Part shown: one piece after another, positions 23,257 to 40,600 of the stretch
Numbering within the stretch: the stretch's first letter is position 1
Layout: every line of letters begins with the position of its first letter
Origin: an uncultured Gemmatimonadales bacterium
Lineage (GTDB): Bacteria > Gemmatimonadota > Gemmatimonadetes > Longimicrobiales > Gaopeijiaceae
DNA length: 64,000 nucleotides
Reading direction: 5' to 3'
Assembly: GCA_963809895.1 (NCBI GenBank)
Contig: CAWELD010000003.1
Coordinates: 1,856,001 to 1,920,000 of the forward strand
Notes under the pieces: model-generated
Databases searched by the model: none
What the model saw: only the letters and a program-made list of their open reading frames with translations
Told to the model about the DNA's origin: nothing
Made by a program: the position numbers and the translations under genes

Positions 23257-23657
23257 CTCTCAATCCGCCGCCCGTAGCCAACGTCCAAGGCCCTCACCTC
23301 ACAGCGAGTACTCCTCGATCCGCTCCTTGCCCGAGACGCTCACCGGCAGCCGTGTCCCGTCGGCCAGGATCGCGAGCCACTTCTCCGGTCCGTCGTCGCG
23401 CAGCTCGCGCACCCGCTCGAAGTTCACCAGAGCCGAGCGATGGACGCGCACGAATCCGTGCGACTCGAGCTTCTTCTGGAGGGAGCGCATCGTCTCACGC
23501 AGCAGGAGGCTCCTGCCCCCGGTGACCACCTGGACGTAGTTGCCTTCGCTCAGGATGTAGTCGATGTCGCGGACGGGCGTCAGGACGGTGCGGTTCCCGA
23601 CGCGCAGGGGGAGGCGGTCATCGGCGTTGGCCGCACGCAGGCGCTGGATGCTCGACC
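23257..23657 (-). repeat. Copy A of LytTR gene 3' end plus downstream flank
   Basis: Encodes SSIQRLRAAN...KERIEEYSL; near-identical to the corresponding parts of copy B (from 25274) and of the gene ending at 29843. Confidence 0.92.
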
Positions 23658-25273: not shown

Positions 25274-25732
25274 CTCTCAATCCGCCGCCCGTAGCCAACG
25301 TCCAACGCCGTCACATCACAGCGAGTGTCTCTCGATCCGCGCCTTTCCCGAGACGCTCACCGGCAGCCGTGTCCCGTCGGCCAGGATCGCGAGCCACTTC
25401 TCCGGTCCGTCGTCGCGCAGCTCGCGCACCCGCTCGAAGTTCACCAGAGCCGAGCGATGGACGCGCACGAATCCATGCGACTCGAGCTTCTTCTGGAGGG
25501 AGCGCATCGTCTCACGCAGCAGGAGGCTCCTGCCCCCGGTGACCACCTGGACGTAGTTGCCTTCGCTCAGGATGTAGTCGATGTCGCGGACGGGCGTCAG
25601 GACGGTGCGGTTCCCGACGCGCAGGGGGAGGCGGTCATCGGCGTTGGCCGCTCGCAGGCGCTGGATGCTCGACCGGAGGTCTTCCCCGCCCGCTCGCCCC
25701 TCGAGCAGGGCGAGGGCGCGCTCCCAGGCCCG
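25274..25732 (-). repeat. Copy B of LytTR gene 3' end plus downstream flank
   Basis: Matches the intact gene up to 30259; ends KARIERHSL instead of KERIEEYSL. Confidence 0.92.
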
Positions 25733-29842: not shown

Positions 29843-30584
29843 CTAGAGCGAGTACTCCTCGATCCGCTCCTTGCCCGAGACGCTCACCGGCAGCCGTGTC
29901 CCGTCGGCCAGGATCGCGAGCCACTTCTCTGGTCCGTCGTCGCGCAGCTCGCGCACCCGCTCGAAGTTCACCAGAGCCGAGCGGTGGACGCGCACGAATC
30001 CGTGCGACTCGAGCTTCTTCTGGAGGGAGCGCATCGTCTCACGCAGCAGGAGGCTCCTGCCCCCGGTGACCACCTGGACGTAGTTGCCTTCGCTCAGGAT
30101 GTAGTCGATGTCGCGGACGGGGGTCAGGACGGTGCGGTTCCCGACGCGCAGGGGGAGGCGGTCATCGGCGTTGGCCGCACGCAGGCGCTGGATGCTCGAC
30201 CGGAGGTCTTCCCCGCCCGCTCGCCCCTCGACCAGGGCGAGGGCGCGCTCCCAGGCCCGGGCCACGCGCTGGAACTCGAAGGGCTTGAGCAGATAGTCGA
30301 TGGCGGCGACGTCGAAGGCGCGCAGCGCGAATTCGTCGTAGGCCGTCACGAAGATCGTCACCGGCACCTGGTCGGTATCGAGGCCCTCGATGACCTCGAA
30401 GCCGTCCCGGCCCGGCATGCGGATGTCGAGGAATACCACGGCCGGGCGCTGGGCCGCGATCATCTCCAGCGCCTGATCCCCGGACGCGGCCTCGACGATG
30501 GTCAGCTCATCGTCGAGCTGCGGTCAGATGCTCGCGGAGCATCTCCCTCACCAGGGGCTCGTCGTCGGCGATCAGGACCTTCAC
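29843..30584 (-). CDS. LytTR-family response regulator (N-terminal frameshift(s) near 30520-30545)
   Basis: GTG start VKVLIADDEPL at 30584; FLDIRMP, FVTAYDEFA, DYLLKP, FVRVHRSALVN. Confidence 0.9.
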
Positions 30585-33302: not shown

Positions 33303-33963
33303 GGCCGGGATTGTGTGGAGGAAATCGGGGGGGCGGTGGCAGGAGATGATCGTAGCACCGCCCCAACTTGGATGGGCAGGGGCGATTCCGGTTAGAAAGC
33401 GCTAGGTGGTCAGCCGCGACGAGGGTCCCACGAACAGGCTGAAGACGTTGGCGTTGCCTTGCCGAGGTCCAGTGGGGACTCTCCAGGCCGTGGGTTCGAC
33501 AGCTCCGTCAAGAAGCTGGCGGAAACAAGACTTGGGCCCGTTCAGTGGCGTGACGTGTCAGACGGCCGGGCTCATTGCCCCGCTGGCCTTTCATTCCAGA
33601 GTCCGCCCCGAGTCGATTCGCTACCCTCGCCAATTTGCCCAGGTATTCGCAGCTTGGCATTCTCCACTTGGACGGGGCCATAGGCCTAGATGATACTGCG
33701 GGATCCGTGATCCGCACGCGGGAGGTCCTCGTCGGGATCTGGTTTCGGGAGGGCCCTCCGGTTCCGCATGCCTCCGCCGCGGCGCAGACACGGTCGGACG
33801 CCGTCATCAAGGAGTGACCGGGAGACGAGGTGCTTCTCCGACTCCGTCCAGGTCCCAGGAGATCTCCTTCTGGCGGCACGGCTGGTTGAGGAAGTCCCTC
33901 GTTGGCGGGCCCCTTTTCTCGGGTTGCGCTCAACGCCCGCCAATTGAATGCGCAACGAGAGAT

Positions 33964-35181
33964 CTAATCGGCCGGCGCGACAACTTCAGCTGCGCTCTTC
34001 TTCCTAAAAGAGCCGAAGGAGATGTTATCGAGGAATCCATCGGGGATCGCTTGGACCGGTTCTGGATCGGGCGTCTCTCGCTTTGGGGGGACCAGCGAGG
34101 GCTCTAACGAAACCGTGTCGCCGAAGAACTGCCGTCGGATCTCCAAGCCAAGCACTTCGGCCAAGGCACTCGGTACGGCATTCCCAAGTTGCCGCTGTAT
34201 TGCTGTGATTCCGCCTTGTACTTCAAAACCATCTGGGAAAGTCTGGATACGGCAGAGTTCCCGAGCTGAAAGGCGGCGATTCTCCCAATGGAACGGTCCG
34301 ATCGCGCTGCCGGGCTGCGCCTGAACCGTCCACGAGGGGCGCTTCTTCGCGAGCTTTAGAAGCATGCTCCAATAGCGAGAACGCCACTTGAATATTGGAG
34401 TGCCGCCTCCCCTCTCCGTGTGCCAGAGGTAGTTATTCCCTTCGGGGATCGACGGCAACAAGGGTGCCCACTTCCCGGTCACGGCGAGCGCCTCGGCATT
34501 AGCTGGCCGATCAAGATCCCCTAAGGCATCCCAGGCTGTGCGGTAAGGCTCAAGGTCGAAGACTGAAACCTGCTCCGGGTTCTTCGCCGGATCTGCGAAA
34601 CGTGGCCTCGGAAACTCGAACTCCGCGCCATCCCTTGAGCCGATCAGGAAGACCCTCTCTCGGATTTGGGGAACCCCGAAATCCGCGGCATTCAGCACTT
34701 CGAAGCGTAGTGAGTATCCTGCACCCGTCCGATCGTTGATCTGAGAGAGTGCATCCTTGAGGAAGACCATTCCCTCGTCCTTCCCCTCATACGTGAGTCC
34801 GTAGACGTTCTCAAGAAGAAAGGCCTTCGGAAACGTGTCTTCGAGGACACGCATGTACGCCCCGAGCGTGGAAGCACGAGGGTCGTCGAGCCGCTTCGTA
34901 TCGCCTCGGGCCCAGTATGCTGACTTAGAGAACGGCTGGCATGGCGGACCACCACAAAGAAGGTCGGCCTCTCCGGGCTCCAGCCCGGCGGCCTCTAGGA
35001 TCGCCTCGCTCGGTACGTCGTGGATGTCCCGGTCAATCACTGGCCACTCCCGGTTGTGGCGAAGGGTGCGCACGCAGGTGCTGTCCATTTCGACACAGAC
35101 GCGAGTCTCGAATCCGGCCGCCTCTAGCCCGAGGTCAAGGCCACCGGCACCGGAGAACAGGGAGATTAGCGATCGGGACAT
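33964..35181 (-). CDS. DNA (cytosine-5)-methyltransferase of a type II R-M system
   Basis: LFSGAGG, GGPPCQPFS, ENV, QIRERVF, QLGNAVP motifs. Confidence 0.95.
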   Translation of the reverse strand: MSRSLISLFSGAGGLDLGLEAAGFETRVCVEMDSTCVRTLRHNREWPVIDRDIHDVPSEAILEAAGLEPGEADLLCGGPPCQPFSKSAYWARGDTKRLDDPRASTLGAYMRVLEDTFPKAFLLENVYGLTYEGKDEGMVFLKDALSQINDRTGAGYSLRFEVLNAADFGVPQIRERVFLIGSRDGAEFEFPRPRFADPAKNPEQVSVFDLEPYRTAWDALGDLDRPANAEALAVTGKWAPLLPSIPEGNNYLWHTERGGGTPIFKWRSRYWSMLLKLAKKRPSWTVQAQPGSAIGPFHWENRRLSARELCRIQTFPDGFEVQGGITAIQRQLGNAVPSALAEVLGLEIRRQFFGDTVSLEPSLVPPKRETPDPEPVQAIPDGFLDNISFGSFRKKSAAEVVAPAD

Positions 35182-35257
35182 TGCGCAGGGTAGGTTGAGG
35201 CTTGAGCTTCACGGGTACCGTATCATACCACCCATCCACTGTACCCTCAATACAACC

Positions 35258-35482
35258 GTGCACATCCACATTCGACTACGCGAATGCATGGACCGCCACG
35301 AAGCGCGGACCGGCCGGCGAATCAGCTACGGGGATGTGGCTGAAGCAACGGGCCTGAGCCTTGCGACGATTGAATCCATCGGATCACGCGAGCACTACAA
35401 CGCGACCCTCGCGATCGTGGCGAAGCTCTGCCGGGCCCTTTCAGTCGATATCGCAGAGATTCTCGAACTGAGGGACAGCTAA
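35258..35482 (+). CDS. Small Xre/Cro-type HTH regulator divergent from the methyltransferase
   Basis: ISYGDVAEATGLSLATIESI...KLCRALSVDIAEIL; 74 aa from GTG. Confidence 0.75.
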   Translation: MHIHIRLRECMDRHEARTGRRISYGDVAEATGLSLATIESIGSREHYNATLAIVAKLCRALSVDIAEILELRDS

Positions 35483-36564
35483 TCGCCGACAGCCGTGTCG
35501 ACGATTGCTTTCCAACTCTGCAGACCGACAATTGAGGCCTCGATCTCGAGTAGGCGCTCGTAAATGTCGCGGCCGGCAGACTCCAATACTCGTCTCGGCG
35601 GCCGCCCCGAGTTGAACAAGACGCTGCTCAGCAACTCGAGCCATCCGCAATAGACGGCGAGCGAGATCCCGCGGTCGAACGCTGCGTCCACGAGAGCACC
35701 GAGTTCGAGCCGAGGCTGACCTGTCGCAACCGCAACCATTGCCGCCCAACGCGCCTGGGCCTCGTGGGCCTTCACGAGGAAATGCGAGACGTCGTGTACA
35801 CCGACGACCTTATCTCGGACCTCGTACACGCGCACCACCGAGTAGGGATGCTCGGGATCCAGGACACCTACGTCGCCTGGGAAGCGGCGATCAGGGTCGT
35901 TGATTCGATCGACCAAGACTCGCTCCGGGCCGTAGAGCTGATCAAGGAACCCCGCAGCTACCGCCTGTGCTCGCTTCCCTCCCTCGGAATCCTCGCCTGT
36001 AAACTCCGCGACTATCGCAGCCAGTTCTGACGGGGTCACCCTGATCATCGCGTCGCCGTCTAGCGTCGGGGGTGGCGTACGTGCTCGACCCCGGATGAAT
36101 GCTCGAAGAGCTGCGCGCGCATCGCGTTCATCGCCCGCCTCAAGGAGCTGGATACCCTCCAGCATGATCTTAAATGGAACCTCGGCGTCGCCGCGTAGCT
36201 TCTCCGACGCCTCGTCGAGATCCTTCTTCCCAAAGTAGGGCTGGTTGTTCAGCGGCTCGCGTCCAGTAACGCCCAAGTCGATTGACAAAGCGGGTGCCAT
36301 CGCGGCCAGTACGTGCTGAGCGAGGCTCCGAGCGGAGTAGGCTCCGGGAACGCCAGCCGACACCTTGAGTGTCCGCACGTTGACGCGGGGGTTTGTCGCT
36401 TTGGCGAGGATGGCGGTCCCTAACATCGCTATGTGCGTCTTCGGAGCCCTTTCGCAGGCTCTGGAGAGTCTTGCAACGAGGTCGATCCATACATCCGGAA
36501 TCGGCTCTTCGCTCCGGGCGGCCTCCTTGAGCACCTGGCTAGCTTTCTCGTGATCGATCTTCAT
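35479..36564 (-). CDS. SacI-family restriction endonuclease
   Basis: AYSARSL, LGVTGREPLNNQPYF, SEGGKRAQA, INDPDRRFPGDV, EVRDK; adjacent to C5-MTase. Confidence 0.8.
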   Translation of the reverse strand: MKIDHEKASQVLKEAARSEEPIPDVWIDLVARLSRACERAPKTHIAMLGTAILAKATNPRVNVRTLKVSAGVPGAYSARSLAQHVLAAMAPALSIDLGVTGREPLNNQPYFGKKDLDEASEKLRGDAEVPFKIMLEGIQLLEAGDERDARAALRAFIRGRARTPPPTLDGDAMIRVTPSELAAIVAEFTGEDSEGGKRAQAVAAGFLDQLYGPERVLVDRINDPDRRFPGDVGVLDPEHPYSVVRVYEVRDKVVGVHDVSHFLVKAHEAQARWAAMVAVATGQPRLELGALVDAAFDRGISLAVYCGWLELLSSVLFNSGRPPRRVLESAGRDIYERLLEIEASIVGLQSWKAIVDTAVGD

Positions 36565-37032
36565 ATGTGGCTGGGTGGTGTCAGACTTCTGTCTCAATCG
36601 CGGCATTGGTTCTGGAGACCGCACCGAGACGAGCTTCCTCGCGGATGAGATCTCGCCGCGCAGCCGAAGGTCGTCTCTACACCTGAATCTCAAAAGGCTT
36701 CAAGGCAAGAGGTCCCCATCTGGAAGACATGGTCTGACCCACCCGCGAGCATGCCGCGTAACGTGAGGGGGCTTCCGAACCGGCCCTCAACCAAACGTTC
36801 GACTCGCAGGTTACGCTGAGTCCCGTCGGCTCCGCCAGGGCCTTCCACATGGTTGTGGGTCGATTCGGACGAAGCGCTGCGCCGGTCACCGCGCGGTGCG
36901 AAGCCGAACGCCTCGAGTCAAGTGAGGCGCGAACCGGGCGTTCAAGCCCAGCCCTCCCGATCATGGAGCCGTGACGAGAATGGGCAAGCCACCGTCGTTG
37001 GCCGGCCGATGCGTCTCCGGCACGCCGGGCAA

Positions 37033-37639
37033 TCACACAAGCCACACAGTGACGCCGAATGCACCGAGGACGATCGCTCCGAGGATAAGCCATGGACGCT
37101 GTGCTGCCGCAGACCAACGGAGGCGGGTGAGGAGCTTGCCCCCGAAACTGACCTTGAAGTCGTCAGGCTGTCGCACAGCGAACATCCCGTAGTCGACCGG
37201 CTCGTGGTTCTCAGGAAATCGCTTCAATATGTCGTTGTAGTCCTCAATGAACCCCACCACATCGAGCGCTTCGGCCTCAAGGCTGGCAAGGTCGTAGAGC
37301 CGTCCGAGCCTCGATCGCCGCTCGATGATGTTGGTCGGCCCGAAGCTCATACGACTTCCCATACTCTAGAACTGACACCACAAGAATGGCGATCGCCCCG
37401 ACGGCTGCAAGAAAATCGACCTGCCCGGAGCTTCCAAACGACCCACCGACCAGACCGAAGGCGTTTGCCAAGGACAGGCCCACCAGTCCGAGCGAAGCGA
37501 AAGTTACCGCCCAACGGGACGCCACGCCGGCACGCGCCAGACGGCGGTACGCTTCAAACCGGGCCCCCTTGGTTGTCCAGACCTTTCTCAGTTGCCGGGC
37601 CCTTGAGCCCTCGTCCTTCAGGTTCTTTGGCCGGATCAC
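37033..37639 (-). CDS. SLATT-domain (SLATT_5-like) membrane effector, one frameshift near 37315
   Basis: WTTKGARFEAYRRL, two TM helices, ENHEPVDY, C-terminal TM helix. Confidence 0.8.
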
Positions 37640-37658
37640 GTGACCCCCACCGAGCGTT

Positions 37659-37802
37659 GGGATCCACTGCTACATGATTCTGATGGTCGCTTCGCACTCA
37701 CCGTCAGCACGAAGGGTAGAAGCTCCTACGGAGACTCTGATCACAGCCGCCCTACTCCATGGCGTAGGGGTTCGCCCGTCCCGGGCGAGAGCAGTGGATC
37801 CC
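37659..37802 (-). ncRNA. Putative RT-associated structured ncRNA
   Basis: 13-bp perfect terminal inverted repeat (37659-37671 / 37790-37802) enclosing four hairpins; fills the RT-SLATT gap. Confidence 0.7.
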
Positions 37803-37808
37803 TAAGGG

Positions 37809-39188
37809 TTAGGAGACGAATGCGATGTCCGCTTCAAGATCCGCAATCTGCTGGTTCCGGTAACGTTCGAACAAGTCATTCACCTGTTCCTCACTCACGA
37901 AGTCGTCAGGTCCGATTCGACCTCTCTCAACGAGGAAATCCAGCCTCTGAGCCATCGTCTCAAAGACATCGTAGTTGTGAACGTAGGCACCGGAAGGCCG
38001 ATGGCGAACCTCATGGAATGCGCGGGCCAGACGCTTGACGTCACCTAGTGACTTTGTAGGTAGGCCCGCGAGCCGCGGGAGCATCGAACGTACGGCCGCG
38101 TCCATCCGAAAGAGCAAGGTCTCGTCAGTCATCGCGGAGAAGTAGAACATCCAGCCATACCTTCGCGACTCGCTGATCGCGCCGGTGATTCGCTCGTTCA
38201 ACTCATCGATGAAGACCTGCCTGGCCAGGTCCGGGGTCATCCAGTCGTGCTCTCGGATCAATCGCTGGCGGTCGCGGCGATACCGCGTTGCCCGTGCTGC
38301 GATCTGCTCGAGGAAGCGATCCACGGAGCTGTCACGCACGGTTACCAAATCGCCGGTGAAGACGTAGCCAAGGAAGCCGATAGCCCATTGAGCTCAAATC
38401 GGCCACCCTTGGCCGTTTGGGGCTCCAGCGGATGCACACGGAGGCCGCGATCCTCCAGCTCACCAGAGACGAACTCATAGACCGTCTCCACCGCATCCGC
38501 GCCCACGATCAGCAGCAGATCATCGACGAAGCGGAAGTAGGCTACCGCGTCTTCCCGGATGCGTTCATCCAAGTCCCCAAGGTAAATGTCGGCGAGGACG
38601 TTGGAGATGCGACAGGCCTTGGGGCACTCCCGCGGTCCGGCGGGTACGCGGAACCTGAGACGTCTACTCCCTTCGCGGCACCGCCGGGTTTCGAATCGCC
38701 CTGTAGACCAACTAGACTCAAAGTCCGGCAGGCGCCGCCGCACAAGGGGCATCAACTTCTCATGAGACACGGAATCGTAGAACTCCTTTATGTCCAAACG
38801 AAGGCATGCATGGGTGCCAGGCTCAGCCTCCGTGACGGCGGTGAGGGCCTCCCGAACCATTGTGTTGGGAAGGACTCGACCAACATGTCCGGAGAACTCC
38901 TCATGTAGGCGTTCCTTAGTTGGAGGAGTGCCAGGCGATCCCTCGCCGTTGGGATGCAGATCTTCGCGCGGCGGGCGAGCTTGGTCCCTTGTTTCGCAAC
39001 ACCTGGGCGTAGTTCCCGAACCGATAGGTGCCGTCTTGGACCTTCTGAGAGACCGTTGCTGCCTCCTCCTCCAGACGATCATCTAAGGCGCTCGGAGCAA
39101 CCCGATCCATACCTCTGGTTTCGTCGAGTCTGAGGCGGTCTCTGTATAGACCAACCAGAGCCTCTAGCGACCAAGGATCCGCCACCAT
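37809..39188 (-). CDS. Defence-associated reverse transcriptase (UG17/DRT10-like), multiply frameshifted as assembled
   Basis: Reconstructed across frames: PREICIPTARDR, DIKEFYDS, GVPQGLSISNVLADIYL, YFRFVDD, GFLGYVF, NERITG...YGWMFYFS. Confidence 0.85.
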
Positions 39189-39213
39189 CCCTCCTCGCTC
39201 GAACATGCCCCTC

Positions 39214-40043
39214 TCATCTCTCTCGTGCCTCATGGGTCTCAAGCAGGAACGTGGCGAGCGTCGTCGCCGCCCCCACGGCAAGACGTGCGTGCCGGGGATG
39301 AACACCTTGCGCCCTCCCGTGCTTTCCATGGCCCGTGCCGTACAGATTTCGAAGCTCAGCAAGGCCGTTAACTAGCGTCGCGAGGTTGCTGAGGAGCCGT
39401 CTGATGGACTCGGCACCCTTGGCGGCATCGTCGATGTCGGCCGGAAGAAGCGTCAGGCCTTTCTCGTCTCCTTCACCAGTCGCGGAACGTCCCACTTAGT
39501 ATCGATCGATACTCCACGCTCGGTGAGGATTGTCTTGCAGGTCGTCTCCACTAGTTCCTTCGCGGTACCGATGGCGAGACTAGGGTCCTGCTCTAGGGCA
39601 CCGCGCATGCGGTCGATCTGCCTCCGGAGTTCCGGGGCGTCCATAGACACGAGCGCGGTTCGTAGAGAGCTGTGTCCGGGAAGGCGTAGGCGCCCATCAA
39701 CCTCCTTCAAACCATCACGCGCCAACCACCGCCGCAACACGGCGGCTGTCTCTTCAGCCCAGTCGGCGTTGTGTCCGCCCCCGGATGCCTCAATGTCGAG
39801 ATTCACGAGGACAGCCTCGTAGACGCGAAGCACTCGGTTCGCCTGGACCGGATCGGACCAGTCGATGCCGTGATAGTACTGTTCGACCAAAGACCGTCGC
39901 TGTCCTCCCACAGGCGGATCGAAAGACAGGTCAGCCTCAAATCCCTCCGCACGAAAGGCGTCGTCAATCTTTGCCAACGTCGTCGAGACGAAGTACTCGC
40001 GGAATTCCTGCCGCGTCTTGATGCTAACGAGGTCTCGCGTCAT
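39214..40043 (-). CDS. AbiJ-like abortive infection protein (Abi_C C-terminal domain), one frameshift near 39460
   Basis: AIGTAKELVETTCKTIL and GLAELRNLYGTGHGK...HARLAV. Confidence 0.85.
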
Positions 40044-40433
40044 GCCAGTACCTAGTGCCTATCGACGTTGCTTAACACGCATGCAATCGCTCCCATGTCG
40101 CGCTTCACTTGACTGCCCATATCCGAGTCCTGCTGTGGCTTCATGGCCTGAGTGTACGCCTGGCACTGGCACCGACCGGCCACGCCCTCCAGAATGGCGC
40201 GTGAAAGCTCCGTCCGCAACTTATGCGATGGGATGATGCAGCCGCGCTGCACACGCACCACATCGGAGACTTGGCAACCGCTCCGCAATCAACGCCCAGC
40301 GATCCCCTGAGTGGACCAGCAGCCCAACTGGCCGGACGAACCCGCCCGGAAAAGGCCCCCCAAGTGCCGGGATGATCGTACCGCCCACCCCGCCCATCCC
40401 GGTGGTCAAACCGTGCAGGCAACCCCCCCGTCC

Positions 40434-40600
40434 GACCCCCCGCCCAGGGGCCTCTCCTGCGGGGAATCCGTCGCGGCGCAGCCCGCGAACGCAGCGGGGG
40501 CTCGCCTTCCGCCGCGCAGCGACGGCTAGCGAGCCCCCGAATTTCCCAAACCCCAGTTGGGCGAGCGTGCCCCGCAGGGGAGGCCCCTGAGCGGGGGGTC
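40434..40600. repeat. 167-bp element with 31-bp terminal inverted repeats (REP/MITE-like)
   Basis: 40434-40464 and 40570-40600 are complementary at 29 of 31 positions; internal IR CGGGGGCTCGC/GCGAGCCCCCG. Confidence 0.75.

Follow-up and report, generated by a model that had tools for sequence, protein, structure and literature searches.

The 64-kb window analysed here, the whole stretch of DNA in which the element lies, carries on its minus strand an Abi_C/AbiJ-like gene, a reverse transcriptase (RT) gene, a structured noncoding RNA (ncRNA), a SLATT gene, and a restriction-modification pair, in that order (Table 1). The SLATT gene is adjacent to the RT gene on the same strand, and the structured ncRNA is located directly upstream of SLATT. 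The positions of the RT stop (37809) and the SLATT start (37639) fit an architecture in which the RT precedes SLATT and the two genes lie about 200 bp apart. Both pieces of the SLATT gene matched Pfam SLATT_5 (E = 3.5e-19 and 5.5e-7). The GC content was 0.59–0.63 across 33500–40500, versus about 0.70 just upstream, and this low-GC stretch is a defence island. A Cro/C1-type HTH frame was also observed between the SacI-type endonuclease and C5 methyltransferase genes, on the opposite strand.

Table 1. Features of the locus, in window coordinates
Feature	Position	Strand	Basis or remark
Type II restriction-modification pair (SacI-type endonuclease and C5 methyltransferase)	33964..36693	minus	
SLATT_5 two-transmembrane effector gene	37033..37639	minus	Pfam SLATT_5, PADLOC RTasSLATT
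ncRNA assigned to DRT10 (UG17-B / Eco2-like)	37659..37802	minus	Homolog-only covariance model and fold; ends are model/fold bounds
SL1, 3' arm	37659..37671	minus	Pairs with 37790–37802
Loop B, predicted template loop, 18 nt	37672..37689	minus	Sequence, covariance-model alignment
Predicted realignment site A' (AUCA)	37675..37678	minus	Inference; begins 7 nt before SL1
Predicted template A-B (AUCA-GA), predicted cDNA unit TCTGAT	37679..37684	minus	Inference
Last inner stem, predicted 5' template boundary element	37690..37714	minus	Core CUUCG/CGAAG
SL4, short hairpin	37723..37733	minus	Fold, covariance model
Loop A, second active-site loop	37736..37749	minus	Conserved G-U core in alignments; geometry as H120 loop 1
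SL3, hairpin	37750..37769	minus	5' anchor of loop A; covariance-model alignment
SL2, hairpin	37772..37788	minus	Fold, covariance model
SL1, 5' arm	37790..37802	minus	Pairs with 37659–37671; 13-bp closing stem
UG17/DRT10 RT gene	37809..39188	minus	PADLOC RT_UG17; start codon and ribosome-binding site read from the sequence
Abi_C / AbiJ-like gene, two overlapping frames	39214..40043	minus	Just upstream of the RT

In terms of RT family, RT_UG17 was the best PADLOC match for all three RT fragments of the window, and also for the intact relatives P0001 (E = 1e-117) and P0003 (E = 2e-119). For P0001, RT_UG17 scored 391 bits, versus 102 for other RT models, with Drt9 at 51.5. With X placed at the breaks in its frame, the window RT was 68% identical to P0001 over 447 aa, and its close relatives showed 60–76% RT identity. 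In an 88-row tree (quick method, midpoint root; L107, L114, L062, and L095 excluded), the window RT grouped with P0001–P0003 and L033 (support 100), next to L055 (97), inside a 62-row branch that contained all 41 RT-then-SLATT loci (SH-aLRT 100). Judged by its sequence, the window RT is from a small, divergent branch with P0001–P0003 and L033. Protein searches found no UG17 RT in 313 other genomes of the family and one in each of the sets of 400 order and 400 class genomes, neither of them close (36–41% identity), and among 400 phylum genomes searched with a profile there were two full-length UG17 matches. The only close relative from a metagenome scan was L033 (53%), on a contig that breaks off within the RT. 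No DRT10 chain was among the solved-structure matches for P0001. The C-terminal residue of the RT is Ser, as in P0001–P0003, and by analogy with Eco3 it is predicted to be the candidate priming residue. The catalytic motif (at about 38530) is FVDD, not YVDD; FVDD is common to P0001–P0003, L033, and L055 and also occurs in two actinobacterial loci (L112 and L113).

Four reports describe the systems to which such RTs belong. UG17 corresponds to DRT10, which comprises an RT, an ncRNA, and SLATT, and makes protein-primed tandem-repeat cDNA from an A-B-A' loop; for six further systems, the predicted repeats agreed with what was made (Tang et al. 2025, PMC12632851). Sanchez-Nieto et al. (2026, 10.64898/2026.04.29.721553), who assigned the E. 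coli H120 DRT10 to UG17-B, described an architecture in which the RT gene is followed by SLATT at a distance of about 200 bp, with the RNA upstream of SLATT. One pseudo-symmetric RNA binds two RTs, with loop B giving repeats and loop A short products, and the template boundaries are geometric (Ramirez et al. 2026, 10.64898/2026.06.29.735271). The lengths of the loops and the bases templated first can be read from the H120 structure (Chen et al. 2026, 10.64898/2026.10.08.757509).

The ncRNA of the window is 144 nt long and consists of five stems round a pseudo-symmetric multiloop. The initial annotation had proposed a 13-bp closing stem and four hairpins within it, and all of these occupy exactly the positions it gave them on the minus strand (Table 1); the two G-U pairs that it required in the last stem were also borne out, as read from the sequence. 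The minus-strand fold had an energy of -66 kcal/mol (z = -3.32), which none of 200 shuffles equalled. However, the plus strand folded equally well (-65.5, z = -3.67, equalled by 2 of 200 shuffles), so fold energy alone cannot choose the strand; this was settled by a covariance model, which gave a full-length match on the minus strand. A scan of 37500–37950 against Rfam gave no matches at E ≤ 10, and neither an intrinsic terminator nor a sigma-70-like promoter was found within 36800–39500.

A scan of genome contigs retained 80 of 135 UG17-like loci, and among the matches listed, the intergenic DNA of RT-then-SLATT loci folds into the same multiloop. Twenty-four homologous RNAs, with the window left out, were aligned for the covariance model (R1). 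RNAalifold on a MAFFT alignment recovered only three helices and was rejected as its basis, and R1 was therefore built on a pair-probability consensus. In an unfiltered search of the whole window, the top match of R1 was 37659–37803 on the minus strand (30.9 bits, E = 6.3e-7), followed by a runner-up at 13.6 bits, among 318 matches in total at E ≤ 10 with rough E-values. The locus was not among the matches of a filtered whole-genome search with R1, and its 30.9 bits compare with 97–171 bits for six-stem Eco2-like RNAs. The conserved stem-base and loop A residues were in register in this homolog-only match. Applied to 85 sources, R1 gave 36 matches at E ≤ 0.5, and the RNAs of L003, L004, and L055 are among the many divergent ones that it overlooked. 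The covariation among homologues that had been named as a check on the initial annotation was found in the resulting 36-row alignment, in which 43 of 45 pairs had changed on both sides (as high in 0 of 500 shuffles) and 89.9% of cells were paired, versus 40–47% with the partners slid, both statistics applying to related rows in an alignment fitted to the structure. In the window, identical weak R1 scores also appeared at about 23370–23650, 25390–25690, and 30045–30220, with spacings of about 2.0 and 4.5 kb, a pattern suggestive of a sequence of a few hundred bases present in three copies.

Several details of the fold are common to the homologs. Both helix segments of the closing stem SL1, which is the 3' anchor of the template loop, covary in the homologs; the SL3 stem is flanked by AC before and CG after it, the same as in the homologs; and the last stem aligns to the homolog consensus CUUCN/NGAAG. 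Each of the two single-stranded loops opens with CG and follows a stem whose last pair is C-G. The window RNA lacks the extra hairpin that separates SL4 from the last stem in Eco2-like RNAs. The last inner stem is SL5 in the Eco3/H120 numbering and SL6 in the Eco1 numbering, and its predicted role as a boundary is taken from the published DRT10 work. No base of loop B was paired in the centroid or in the homolog-based model, and the loop was only moderately open in the thermodynamic ensemble (probability unpaired, 0.33–0.88). Searches by sequence returned little: a DNA search of 60 relatives gave a single 44-bp match, at a locus without a detectable RT; a 15-nt loop A pattern occurred at 50 loci in viral contigs, none with an RT; and blastn with one homolog locus gave no E. 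coli match.

Because of the RT family, the SLATT_5 partner, the gene order, and the independent covariance-model match, the element at 37659–37802 is almost certainly a DRT10 RNA. The initial annotation had proposed realignment "as reported for DRT10" and was right about the kind of mechanism; the element is not merely similar to DRT10, but a member of it, as indicated by RT_UG17, SLATT_5, and the covariance model. On the sequence comparisons, the subtype is probably UG17-B / Eco2-like, since the RT groups with RT-then-SLATT loci and the RNA was matched by the Eco2-like model built here from homologs.

Loop B has a length at the short end of the 18–23 nt found among the aligned RNAs. It contains an A-B-A' arrangement downstream of a stable stem, AUCA-GA-AUCA at 37684–37675, as the initial annotation had it to the base, beginning 6 nt past the last stem when counted from the last canonical pair (offset 6). 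A 4-nt A-B-A' occurred anywhere in an 18-nt loop of the same composition in 14% of 20,000 shuffles, so the motif by itself is weak evidence; at offset 6, with A' 6–10 nt from the closing stem, it occurred in 1.2%, although this position was picked after the papers had been read. The layout was confirmed, but the initial annotation had missed competing registers of the same loop, namely CAU/CAU (period 9), CA/CA (period 3), and GA/GA (period 8), and a 5-nt period-9 match also exists from offset 3 if one dG-rU wobble is allowed. In the window loop, offsets 6 and 7 give a 6-nt unit, whereas offsets 3–5 give 9-nt units, but at the cost of either a wobble close to the end of the primer or an extremely short 3' linker.

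The offsets were compared in homologous loops. When the window and four rows of poor alignment (L077, L087, L115, and L058) were removed from the 36 aligned RNAs, 31 loops remained, 20 of them distinct but related sequences, and A/A' matches of at least 2 nt with A' 6–10 nt from the closing stem were counted. Of these 20, 18 had such a match at offset 6 (5.6 expected), 15 at each of offsets 3, 4, and 7, and 6 at offset 5, where there was no enrichment (5.4 expected). Most homologous loops have GAU...GAU, which raises the counts at offsets 3 and 4. Matches of at least 3 nt were found in 13 loops at offset 3, versus 8 at offset 6. Among 13 divergent loops anchored by folding alone, offset 6 did not stand out, with matches in 6 (4.6 expected) compared with 9 for offset 4. 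Six loops matched at offset 6 but not 3 (L072, L079, L080, L115, L058, and L040) and two at offset 3 but not 6 (L059 and L057), with the anchors of L115, L058, L040, and L057 placed by hand in sequences already seen. L115, whose RT falls in an 11-row branch with that of the window, matched over 5 nt at offset 6, whereas offsets 3 and 4 gave no match.

Given that the element is a DRT10 RNA, the sequence favours, somewhat above even chance, the repeat unit (TCTGAT)n, which is the same repeat as the (TGATTC)n of the initial annotation. The 6-nt repeat corresponds to the best-fitting register in the homologous loops, but a 9-nt unit is a real rival to it, albeit a distinctly less probable one, and a unit that is mixed, or altered by an assembly error, appears no likelier than that. 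The published systems bear on this choice in both directions. Eco2DRT10 of E. coli has a 2-nt A and was analysed with a MEME minimum motif width of 5 (PMC12632851), which would fit offset 6 of an Eco2-type loop, and the H120 base numbers fit the E. coli Eco2-type row UG17_locus_1340 by hand count. In Eco3, the template begins 3 nt after G104, the base directly past the canonical stem (10.64898/2026.06.29.735271, PMC12632851), and this geometry, taken literally, corresponds to offset 4 and favours a 9-nt unit in the window. An initial 9-nt reading, with the boundary 3 nt after the stem, was demoted by the H120 paper and the homolog test.

An alternative that we consider unlikely, though not negligible, is that the same DRT10 RNA has its boundary 1–3 nt nearer the stem (37685–37687) and realigns 9 nt downstream, with ATTCTGATG, TTCTGATGG, or TCTGATGGT as the repeat, or that 9-, 6-, and 3-nt units are mixed via cryptic internal sites of the kind documented for Eco1 (PMC12632851). 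The period-9 and period-3 registers, the wobble-tolerant match from offset 3, the literal Eco3 geometry, and the enrichment of offsets 3 and 4 in the homologs are all consistent with it. However, at offsets 3 and 4 one of the last two primer pairs would have to be a wobble, and changes at these positions in Eco3 (non-wobble) abolished the repeats (PMC12632851), and offset 5, besides being unenriched, leaves A' only 5 nt from SL1, whereas removal of 2 nt from the 3' linker of Eco3 abolished the product (10.64898/2026.06.29.735271). The pattern in L115 also argues for the 6-nt unit. No tandem (TGATTC)2+, (ATTCTGATG)2+, or (TCTGATGGT)2+ was found genome-wide, as expected if the product is not integrated.

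By analogy with the characterized DRT10 systems, and with the 6-nt unit as the preferred reading, one RNA would carry two RT molecules, one at loop A and one at loop B. The loop-B RT would prime on its own C-terminal serine, begin near 37679, and copy up to a boundary set by the stem at 37690–37714 and predicted at 37684. The cDNA would then be released and its new 3' end, TGAT, would re-pair with A' (37675–37678), so that repetition of the cycle would yield a protein-linked single-stranded (TCTGAT)n, while the loop-A RT would yield short products only. Upon phage infection, the repeat DNA may trigger the SLATT membrane protein.

With the H120 / Eco2-like systems (Tang et al., Table S2), the locus shares a UG17 RT of about 469 aa and a SLATT partner, a long closing stem, two loops that are each anchored by one of two equivalent stems, the loop A spacing (an anchor G, a G five bases on, and a 6-nt linker), and the CUUC/GAAG core of the last stem. 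In contrast, the window RNA is far diverged in sequence from the Eco2-like RNAs, and the window differs in its priming residue (predicted Ser vs Tyr467 in H120), catalytic motif (FVDD vs YVDD), third loop-B position (A vs G in Eco2-like), and predicted template and repeat, and its genes are frameshifted as assembled. Eco3DRT10 resembles it in the five stems, the 4-nt A and A', the C-terminal Ser, and the size of the RNA (137 vs 144 nt), whereas in Eco3 the SLATT and RT genes overlap, with the RNA upstream of SLATT, and the missing hairpin is on the 5' half rather than, as in the window, the 3' half; Eco3 also has a 9-nt repeat with a 5-nt B, versus the 6-nt repeat and 2-nt B predicted here. 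Eco1DRT10 and the UG17-A system of Escherichia sp. E3659 share A-B-A' realignment with the window, where it is predicted, but have ACU/AC-type alignment motifs and 8- and 7-nt repeats, and neither the six stems of the Eco1 RNA nor the ncRNA-SLATT-RT order of E3659 is found in the window. Telomerase RNA has in common with DRT10 a short internal template, an alignment segment, and a stem-loop boundary (PMC12632851), but DRT10 is protein-primed, has two RTs per RNA, and acts against phages. Membership of telomerase was rejected, as the element is predicted to work like telomerase without being one.

As assembled, neither the RT nor SLATT has an unbroken reading frame. The RT contains 8 single-base indels between about 38981 and 38385 (about 600 bp) and no in-frame stop, and SLATT contains at least one frameshift, near 37306–37330. 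A pseudogene, in which the RNA is the remnant of a decayed DRT10 and no repeat DNA is made in the organism, fits this density of indels and the split Abi_C gene next to it, and because the frames of rpoB, rpoC, two dnaE genes, and carB are open, the damage is confined to this locus and may reflect real decay. Against this, the indels bring no stops and largely alternate between +1 and -1, and therefore look more like consensus error than decay; the identity to P0001 is retained despite the breaks; and the FVDD motif, the terminal Ser, and all RNA stems are intact. The indels are thus probably local consensus errors, and we judge it likely that the locus is intact in the living organism and improbable that it is a pseudogene. 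The frameshifts cluster in three adjoining genes within 37000–40043 (SLATT, RT, and Abi_C/AbiJ-like); long open frames are seen in the restriction-modification and pilus genes nearby.

It is very unlikely that the element is merely a structured intergenic region (a terminator, a leader, or a fold arising by chance) or belongs with another class of RT, as the RNA of a retron or DRT9. The 5.33-Mb genome has 41 perfect 13-bp inverted repeats with 90–200-nt spacers (7.7 per Mb), the plus strand folds equally well, and the motif alone has a 14% chance, but this reading is countered by the in-register homolog-only match and the covariation, the margin of RT_UG17 over the other RT models on P0001, and the lack of a terminator-like site and of an Rfam match. 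Retron was rejected on the PADLOC classification of the RT as UG17 and the negative Rfam scan, and DRT9 (UG28) on its score on P0001 and the lack of a U run in loop B, as DRT9 needs a poly-U template tract (PMC12632851). The best explanation overall, which we hold with high confidence, is a DRT10 anti-phage system with repeat synthesis, of which the element is the RNA subunit.

The initial annotation had also reported a related motif, AUCAGAGU(C), which lies exactly at 37741–37733; however, its AUCAGA sits in loop A, which in this pseudo-symmetric RNA is the second of two template-like loops. The geometry of loop A appears to match loop 1 of H120 in a mapping made by hand, which would make the G at 37742 its initiation base. 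The AUCAGA (37741–37736) forms the 3' linker of loop A, which has no usable A-B-A', and in Eco3DRT10 loop A gives short abortive products only (10.64898/2026.06.29.735271). (TCTGAT)n is complementary over 6 nt to this AUCAGA, which lies one base past the presumed initiation site, in a place equivalent to A' in loop B. Among 25 pairs of loops A and B, a 6-nt match was found only in the window (the next were 5 and 4, and the others 1–2) and is therefore not conserved; part of it stems from the conserved loop A core. Most likely, the match is a coincidence resting on this core. It is very improbable that the growing cDNA is passed between the RTs of the dimer, gains a short CAC tail, and stops; if true, such a hand-over to loop A would be a built-in length limiter or end mark, novel for DRT10 in the literature examined. 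The finding that engineered Eco3 RNAs with two templates gave no chimeras (10.64898/2026.06.29.735271) counts against hand-over.

Publications of 2025–2026 had already described repeat synthesis by DRT10, the A-B-A' rule, and the 2:1 structure. What is new here is a divergent DRT10 copy, with a five-stem RNA that lacks a hairpin on the half opposite to that of Eco3. Depending on which of two readings of the boundary rule is applied, the window loop predicts 6 or 9 nt, and it could calibrate this rule for RT-ncRNA-SLATT systems.

Other gene arrangements were observed among the homologous loci. L115:1343-3722 (G473) and L058:1875-4010 have a third gene order, SLATT-RT-ncRNA, in which SLATT_5 is upstream of the RT and an R1 match follows straight after the RT stop (20.1 and 16.4 bits); their RTs group among the RT-then-SLATT loci in the tree. 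At L060:4077-4742, a UG17-like RT and a DRT10-type RNA are followed by a 221-aa hydrophobic protein, which was missed by the SLATT profile and had no Pfam or PADLOC matches, and a Mrr-type nuclease gene overlaps the RT start. Proteins with similar starts were found at L065, L066, L069, L074, L075, and L083, and this type of hydrophobic protein is possibly an alternative membrane effector.
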